Assembly (NCBI RefSeq): GCF_036321535.1
Contig: NC_087436.1
Location: 67,086,001-67,150,000 of the forward strand
DNA: 64,000 bases
From: Camelus dromedarius
Taxonomy: Eukaryota
Direction: 5' to 3'
Positions 8,733 through 9,467 of the stretch are shown one piece after another. Both the position numbers and the translations under genes were made by a program. Numbering within the stretch: the first letter of the stretch is position 1; every line of letters begins with the position of its first letter. The notes under the pieces are model-generated. The model had not been told where the DNA came from, ran no database searches, and was given only the letters and a program-made list of their open reading frames with translations.

Positions 8733-9467
8733 GGGATCAGACTCAGGGGTGCTGAGTAACCTGCTGTTTTCCTTTTGCCCTATCCTGTTGTGTAGTGGGG
8801 GCCAGAGGAACCATAGCTAGGTCTTAACTATGGCATCTTCTAGGTGTACTGGCATCAAGGTAAAGATCATGCTGCTTTGGGATCCAACTGGTAAGACTGG
8901 CCCTAAGAAGCCCCTGCCTGACCATGTGAGCGTTGTGGAGCCCAGAGATGAAATACTGCCCACTACCCCCATCTCTGAACAGAAGGGAGGGAAGACAGAG
9001 CCACCAGCCATGCCCTAGCCAGTACTCACAGCAAAATAGGGTCTTCTTGGCAGCTGGATCTAGAGTCTGGATGTTGCTCTATAAAGACCTTTAAAAAATT
9101 TTTAAAAGGCATGTGGCCTGACTAGACTCTACATCCAGAATCCACACTGAGGGTCATGTCACCCATGGAAGCACTGCATGATGGAGTCCTAAAGCTATCT
9201 TGTTTGTAATGTTTCTCCGCTTCCCCTGGAATCCTCTTGGTTTTAACTGTGCTTGGGAGATGAGGGCCAGAACAGGAAGACTCAAGCAGAAGTAACCAGA
9301 CAAATATCCTGAGGGTGGGTAAATCTGGTGAGGGTAAAGGCTGATTGCTAACAGGACAGCACCTTGATTGACTCACTTGGAGTTCGGGGTTATAGGTTTA
9401 GAAGAGGGACATTTATGATGGTTTTCTGTATTACACAGAAAAATAAACATAATGGCTATTAAAAAAA
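8733..9467 (+). pseudogene. RPS3: 5'-truncated, semi-processed retrocopy of 40S ribosomal protein S3: intron-like 3' end, last coding exon, long 3' UTR and short A tail
   Basis: 8844-9033 translates to [60 protein letters not shown], which is the RPS3 C-terminus. It has a 1-nt deletion near 8851 and a CAG>TAG stop at 9016-9018. The recognisable RPS3 3' UTR follows directly (GGTCTTCTTGGCAGCTG...GTCTGGATGTTGCTCT.TAAAGACCTTT). AATAAA at 9442-9447, A7 at 9461-9467. Confidence 0.93.

Follow-up and report, generated by a model that had tools for sequence, protein, structure and literature searches.

An RPS3 retrocopy in the dromedary genome that keeps the end of intron 5, appears to stop at the edge of SNORD15B and is bracketed by a direct repeat of ~300 bp

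A Type-3 snoRNA retroposon, as defined by Weber (2006; PMC1687206), comprises a snoRNA, the entire intron downstream of it, the 3′ exons in processed form and a poly(A) tail. According to that account, 30 of the 42 human RPL10 retrocopies belong to Type-3, 12 of these with a partial snoRNA; truncated Type-3 copies are ascribed to arrest of the reverse transcriptase (RT), and the template is described as a pre-mRNA that is cleaved and trimmed from its 5′ side up to the snoRNA, with its 3′ part spliced and polyadenylated. The usual target-site duplication (TSD) peaks at 13–16 bp, and a ttAAAA consensus is stated for the insertion sites. Related elements include H/ACA snoRNA retrogenes such as ACA40, in which a host intron and all 3′ exons were retroposed from a partially processed, exon-containing hnRNA (Luo and Li 2007, PMC1802619), and retrocopies with a remnant intron, namely ovine RPSAP8/RPSAP9 with SNORA62 (PMC2850357) and rodent preproinsulin I and TMF1-in-CYBB (PMC4151081). 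In the sources consulted, long TSDs are documented as rare events: one of 25 LINE insertions in wild-type DT40 cells carried one, of 1228 bp (PMC2666801), and tandem duplications of 1–10 kb have been regarded as large TSDs (bioRxiv 10.1101/2024.12.14.628481).

The window, by which we mean the whole 64,000-nt stretch of dromedary DNA that was analysed, contains an insert whose sequence fits a 5′-truncated Type-3 snoRNA retroposon. It extends from 8731 to ~9463 (733 nt), with a start that is ambiguous between 8727 and 8732, and is made up of 113 nt from intron 5 of RPS3, then exon 6, a putative 3′ UTR reaching to an AATAAA signal (9442) and a short A run. The initial annotation had confined the element to 8733–9060, which is too small, and included neither the direct repeat of ~300 bp that brackets the insert, revealed here by self-alignment, nor the distal poly(A) site. 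The bounds 8731–9463 follow from the repeat ends, the TT/AAAA motif and the A run behind AATAAA, which together give the layout expected of a target-primed insertion with a target duplication of ~300 bp. In the origin that we regard as likely, L1 would have made a poly(A)-primed copy of an RPS3 RNA in which processing was complete downstream of exon 6 while SNORD15B and the intron behind it were still present, with the cDNA stopping at the 3′ edge of the snoRNA and being joined 299 bp from the nick. The features of the locus are as follows.

8430–8435, + strand: L1 endonuclease-type target motif TT/AAAA, start of the duplication (read directly)
8432–8730, + strand: target-site duplication, 5′ copy, 299 bp (aligns to 9464–9783)
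8727–8741, + strand: 5′ junction, probably with a few bases left of the 3′ end of SNORD15B (box D/terminal stem) and of its flanking stem's 3′ strand (motifs 11/15)
8731–8843, + strand: 3′ part of RPS3 intron 5, 113 nt (mouse primer match, human spacing, GC content)
8844–9039, + strand: decayed RPS3 exon 6, residues ~180–243 (uS3 alignment; 3′ boundary presumed)
9040–9460, + strand: putative exon 7 with a long 3′ UTR to the distal cleavage site (no GT[AG] donor in 9024–9112; no other source in the window)
9442–9447, + strand: AATAAA polyadenylation signal, the only one in the 733-nt insert
9461–9467, + strand: poly(A) remnant of 7 A, 4 of them shared with the second repeat copy (read directly)
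9464–9783, + strand: target-site duplication, 3′ copy, 320 bp (self-alignment with 8432–8730)

The class is one already described, and what is less ordinary here is the apparent 5′ end at the snoRNA edge together with the duplication of ~300 bp. Like the Type-3 copies of Weber 2006, the insert runs from the intron downstream of the snoRNA through the 3′ splice site to a poly(A) stretch at a ttAAAA site, and like U70/RPL10 it derives from a host gene that encodes a ribosomal protein and carries the snoRNA in its penultimate intron; the intronic parts of such copies are said to be often overlooked in annotation (PMC1687206). Type-3 copies have processed 3′ exons, and here we infer the removal of the downstream intron. 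Unlike them, the present copy involves a C/D box snoRNA of which at most 3–8 bases are left, and its TSD measures 299 bp (320 bp in the 3′ copy) as against ~14 bp; since the short TSD is missing and almost no snoRNA is present, we file the element as a variant of Type-3. It resembles ACA40-type retrogenes in its retroposed host intron and 3′ exons, but those are of the H/ACA class and keep the snoRNA (PMC1802619). It shares with ovine RPSAP8/RPSAP9 an intron remnant that hosts a snoRNA, a ribosomal-protein gene and an artiodactyl genome, and with preproinsulin I and TMF1-in-CYBB a remnant intron kept in a retrocopy, the hallmark of semi-processed pseudogenes; in contrast to the present copy, these examples retain the snoRNA or whole introns, and the passages describing them mention no long TSD. 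As in the long-TSD LINE insertions, hallmarks of target-primed reverse transcription (TPRT) are found at one end and the duplication far exceeds 20 bp, whereas those events took place in cell lines or tumours and here a cellular RNA mobilised in trans was inserted long ago in the germ line. A literature search returned no RPS3/SNORD15B retrocopy, which carries little weight as Table 3 or Figure S3 of Weber 2006 may contain one; the term ‘U15’ does not occur in the main text of that paper.

Self-alignment gave one long direct repeat, 8432–8730 against 9464–9783, whose copies are 92% identical, with 23 mismatches in 298 ungapped columns, 19 of them transitions (K2P distance 0.083). The homology ends sharply, the 30-nt flanks being only 23% and 17% identical. 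The 5′ copy begins at TT/AAAA (8432), a motif found at 0.16% of the sites in the window and an endonuclease site of the kind used by L1-type retrocopies; the 3′ copy begins inside the run of 7 A. At 299 bp the duplication is ~20 times the usual length of 13–16 bp. Short TSDs are the norm (PMC2912911, PMC1687206), and a normal retrocopy with a short TSD could in principle have had its flank duplicated locally at a much later time, in an unrelated event. We consider this extremely improbable, as the repeat starts exactly at TT/AAAA and at the end of the A run, ends exactly at the 5′ end of the insert, and has an age that matches the decay of the exon.

Inside the 5′ target copy lies a stretch that we take to be MIR-like. 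In this part two indels, one of 17 nt and one of 4 nt, distinguish the copies (9581–9617 versus 8551–8570), and the 3′ copy appears to be the more complete. Because the two repeats are 92% identical and share sharp ends, we rejected an origin from independent insertions of MIR. The folding z score of the duplicated target (−2.1) was not counted as evidence.

The coding part of the insert aligns at 8851–9015 to residues 183–237 of the 243 residues of uS3 (E = 2.4e-27), with 5 of 55 residues differing. Similarity to RPS3 starts at 8844, a one-base frameshift follows within a few bases, a premature stop is present at 9016–9018, and the position of the parental stop, 9034–9036 as deduced from the length of 243 residues, reads AAA and is followed by TAG. 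With the promoter absent, the snoRNA absent and the frame broken, the copy is dead. Among public sequencing runs, 15 of the 24 listed contain 0.95 of the words and five RNA or RNA-like rows contain 0.08–0.28, shares that are blind to position and were not taken as evidence of expression. The divergence between the repeat copies, 0.041 per copy, predicts that 9.2% of residues should have changed, and 9.1% (5/55) have, so that the repeat and the insert are similar in age, within the wide interval of the neutral prediction (95% range 1–10 of 55 residues). At the substitution rates of 1.0–2.5e-9 per site per year assumed here, the repeat divergence corresponds to 17–41 million years, and the insertion probably dates back some tens of millions of years.

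Upstream of the exon, the sequence reads as the end of an intron and not as codons of exon 5: the branch-point-like TCTTAAC at 8822–8828, with a candidate branch A at 8827 (−17), is followed by CATCTTCTAG, which ends at 8843 with the acceptor AG (8842–8843). The abrupt start of RPS3 similarity at 8844 behind an intron end, as claimed initially, is thereby borne out. The assignment of this piece to intron 5 is upheld by comparison with the mouse, in which Snord15b sits between Rps3 exons 5 and 6 and the genotyping primers are printed (PMC12667501). The reverse complement of the reverse primer, which ends in AG/GT, matches 8826–8845 at 17 of 20 positions and at 15 of 18 in its intronic part, while the next-best site on both strands of the 64-kb window reaches 14/20; the first 12 bases of the primer, taken without the generic acceptor, match at 9/12 (p = 7e-4). 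None of the other three mouse primers matched the window meaningfully (best 15/23, 15/20 and 14/20), which is consistent with truncation at the 5′ side. The GC content of 8731–8843 is 0.50, compared with 0.31 in the repeat. These data support the position of the acceptor and the assignment of the final 18 bases before it to intron 5, the span over which the intron could be aligned to published sequence, with the middle ~85 nt lying outside it; together with the agreement in length, they indicate an intron kept from behind the snoRNA to its 3′ splice site, as in Type-3 copies.

A search with an acceptor-spanning pattern yielded 41 metagenome loci, none of them mammalian-like, and 0 genome and 0 viral loci. 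By BLASTN, 26 of the 41 match the window, none upstream of 8834, at 71–79% over the longer exon alignments. When 12 of the 41 non-mammalian RPS3 loci were read by eye, an intron ended at the same Gly codon in 7 and coding continued in 5, a count biased towards introns by the search pattern, which itself required AG at the Gly codon. Diverse non-mammalian eukaryotes (L013, L022, L028, L030, L035, L006 and L017) have in common a phase-1 intron that interrupts the Gly codon preceding GIKVKIM in RPS3, and the intron position is thus ancient.

Human SNORD15B lies in RPS3 intron 5 of 6, an intron of 468 nt, at distances of 215, 107 and 87 nt from the upstream exon, the downstream exon and the branch point, respectively, and has a terminal stem of −16.8 kcal/mol (PMC10234308, Supplementary Table S1). 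The supplements of PMC10324135, PMC13736004 and PMC8176728 yielded no distances. The copy holds 113 intronic nt (109 after AGG), with 93 to the branch-like A, against 107 and 87 in human, although camelid spacing may differ; the 113 nt kept, set against the human 107, place the 5′ end in roughly the final 6 bases of the snoRNA, so that the copy appears to begin at about the last bases of SNORD15B, with at most 3–8 nt remaining.

Short motifs at the junction point the same way. The published human snoRNA end (PMC9529403, Table 1) matches 8727–8734 at 6/8, a score that this motif alone would reach by chance in 7% of cases over 13 sites, and the strand expected to pair with the mouse upstream flank, derived from a published upstream guide, matches 8732–8741 at 8/10. 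Scored in register, the snoRNA end (6/8) and the flank strand (5/7) give 11/15, a value reached by 18 of the ~128,000 sites in the window, with the next site in 8716–8843 scoring 9; the motifs were picked post hoc and drawn from two other species, human and mouse, so this match supports a 5′ end at the snoRNA edge but does not prove it. No U15 match was found with Rfam at any threshold, as is expected for so small a remnant, and this search therefore lends the remnant no support. At the gathering score Rfam detected nothing in the window and nothing in 10 loci, six sub-threshold matches in 8400–9800 were taken as chance, and a tRNA search found none. The hexamer CATTTG at the end of the 5′ target copy (8723–8728) also occurs just before box D in published SNORD15B, and the 3′ target copy has A at the last position of the hexamer; CATTTG is possibly a microhomology at the 5′ junction, or else a chance resemblance.

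The same 5′ end could have been produced without any role for the snoRNA if a full-length mRNA that retained intron 5 had been copied and the cDNA had been truncated at random near the snoRNA end, giving an ordinary semi-processed pseudogene. Such pseudogenes are known (PMC2850357, PMC4151081), intron-retaining isoforms of snoRNA hosts have been reported (PMC4233243) and RPS3 is flagged as NMD-susceptible, in keeping with an intron-retaining mRNA as template; because the copy is truncated, a snoRNA-capped and a full-length intron-retaining template would also leave the same sequence. However, the probability that a randomly positioned 5′ end comes to lie within ±6 nt of the snoRNA end is 0.03–0.05, and the in-register motif match lies exactly at the junction, so that we regard a chance truncation as quite unlikely. 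Alternatively, the template itself may have begun at 8731, as an RNA cut at, or initiated just behind, the 3′ end of SNORD15B by splicing-independent release and then copied in full. This would account for an exact 5′ end without a polymerase stall, and endonucleolytic cleavage of the host pre-mRNA is invoked by Weber 2006, but the intermediates described there begin at the snoRNA's own 5′ end, since the snoRNP blocks 5′ decay (PMC1687206). An unprotected 3′ fragment should be short-lived owing to XRN1, and the few bases resembling the snoRNA end at 8727–8734 speak against a cut behind the snoRNA, which leaves this option highly improbable.

At the other end of the copied RNA, the reading frame is uninterrupted from residue 183 on. 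The absence of an intron after the stop region, as claimed initially, agrees with the sequence, in which no GT[AG] donor-like site occurs in 9024–9112, that is, just after the position of the stop. We assume that intron 6 lies 3 nt after the stop and, taking account of the published number of 6 introns, that the exon 6/7 junction corresponds to 9039/9040; a literature search did not return the position of intron 6 in RPS3, and a search of the literature for words of the 3′ UTR was likewise empty. The segment 9040–9460 may represent the long 3′ UTR of the parental gene, because it ends in AATAAA and an A run and has no other source in the window. The AATAAA lies 13 nt before the A run, an arrangement with a chance of ~0.012 in a window of 21 sites, and a poly(A) stretch (9461) behind a polyadenylation signal is again a trait of Type-3 copies; only 3 A of the tail lie outside the repeat. 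An imperfect AT-rich palindrome of 22 nt occupies 9088–9109, ~55 nt after the stop, where presumably a proximal poly(A) signal would be expected and where no AATAAA is left.

These features bear on whether an RNA step took place at all. An insertion templated at the DNA level, in which break repair copied the parent gene into the point where the two copies of a 300-bp tandem duplication meet, would be in line with the very short A tail and with a long duplication resembling repair-born tandem duplications (bioRxiv 10.1101/2024.12.14.628481). We give this possibility very little credence, as human RPS3 has one further intron downstream of intron 5 (intron 5 of 6, PMC10234308), yet the copy is open in frame from residue 183 and has no donor after the stop, and as AATAAA, the A run and TT/AAAA all coincide at the 3′ junction, contrary to what a DNA-level duplicate would display.

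The proposed course of the L1-made copy is as follows. An enzyme that was presumably the L1 endonuclease would have nicked TT/AAAA at 8431/8432 and primed synthesis on the poly(A) tail. Reverse transcription would then have crossed the long 3′ UTR, the presumed spliced junction of exons 7 and 6, exon 6 and ~110 nt at the 3′ end of intron 5, and the cDNA would have ended within a few bases of the snoRNA 3′ end, as suggested by the distance and the short motifs. The simplest account would be that the terminal stem or the bound box C/D proteins halted the enzyme; a causal role of the snoRNP or its stem in the stop is conceivable, although we lean slightly against it. Finally, joining of the 5′ end 299 bp downstream of the initial nick would have duplicated the target, perhaps through a distant second nick or through replication-based repair. 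Human SNORD15B is abundant in ovary (893–942) and testis (252–368, both in the units of the table; PMC8176728 supplement). In a bolder reading, a box C/D snoRNP assembled on unspliced, polyadenylated host RNA in the germ line would have left this copy as its footprint in the genome, with the L1 RT blocked at box D and the terminal stem and the stalled intermediate resolved with a target duplication of hundreds of bases; we hold this to be unlikely.

With respect to the template, the initial proposal of a polyadenylated, partly spliced RNA is probably right. The primer match, AATAAA and the A run favour an RPS3 RNA that was polyadenylated and still contained the end of intron 5, and it probably lacked the downstream intron, for which the open frame and the missing donor are indirect indications. 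The description of the copy as a fossil record of splicing order overreads, because intron 5 is the host of SNORD15B and Weber 2006 explains the class by cleavage and trimming of pre-mRNA, not by a general order of splicing: the snoRNA accounts for the kept intron, and the copy does not establish a general splicing order. Being truncated at its 5′ end, it is also silent on introns 1–4 and on the 5′ half of intron 5.

The published Type-3 examples considered here are mostly H/ACA, and a C/D copy that stops at the snoRNA edge suggests that such copies exist and have been missed for want of a searchable snoRNA. This points to a genome-wide question, whether C/D snoRNPs load before splicing and block the L1 reverse transcriptase. 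If the snoRNP footprint is true, retrocopies of C/D hosts across mammals should pile up their 5′ ends at the 3′ edge of the snoRNA and be enriched for long TSDs, while being invisible to snoRNA-based searches; they would then serve as a fossil map of how snoRNPs load ahead of splicing and would also supply a cause for long TSDs. A genome-wide TSD survey was confined to 5–30 bp (PMC2912911), and old germ-line insertions with duplications of ~300 bp may accordingly be under-counted.

Several other elements were observed in the window. Direct repeats of ~325 bp at 14119–14440 and 17346–17671, 70% identical, bracket a GC-richer stretch of 3.5 kb that has no stop-free frame longer than 174 codons and has the appearance of an LTR element that is old and decayed. 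At 17666–17750, at the end of the second LTR-like repeat, and at 35175–35293 there are two SINE copies of the tRNA type, which have A-rich or (TAAA)n tails and are 90% alike over 60 nt; we take them (17666–17750 and 35204–35263) to resemble a camelid SINE. A diverged direct repeat pairs 40587–40756 with 41448–41636, ~860 bp apart and 69% identical over 189 columns. The last part of the window, 62001–64000, is CpG-island-like, with a GC content of 0.47–0.48 and a CpG observed/expected ratio of 0.48–0.62; it possibly marks a promoter at the window end and contains a 14-bp tandem repeat at 62989–63018.
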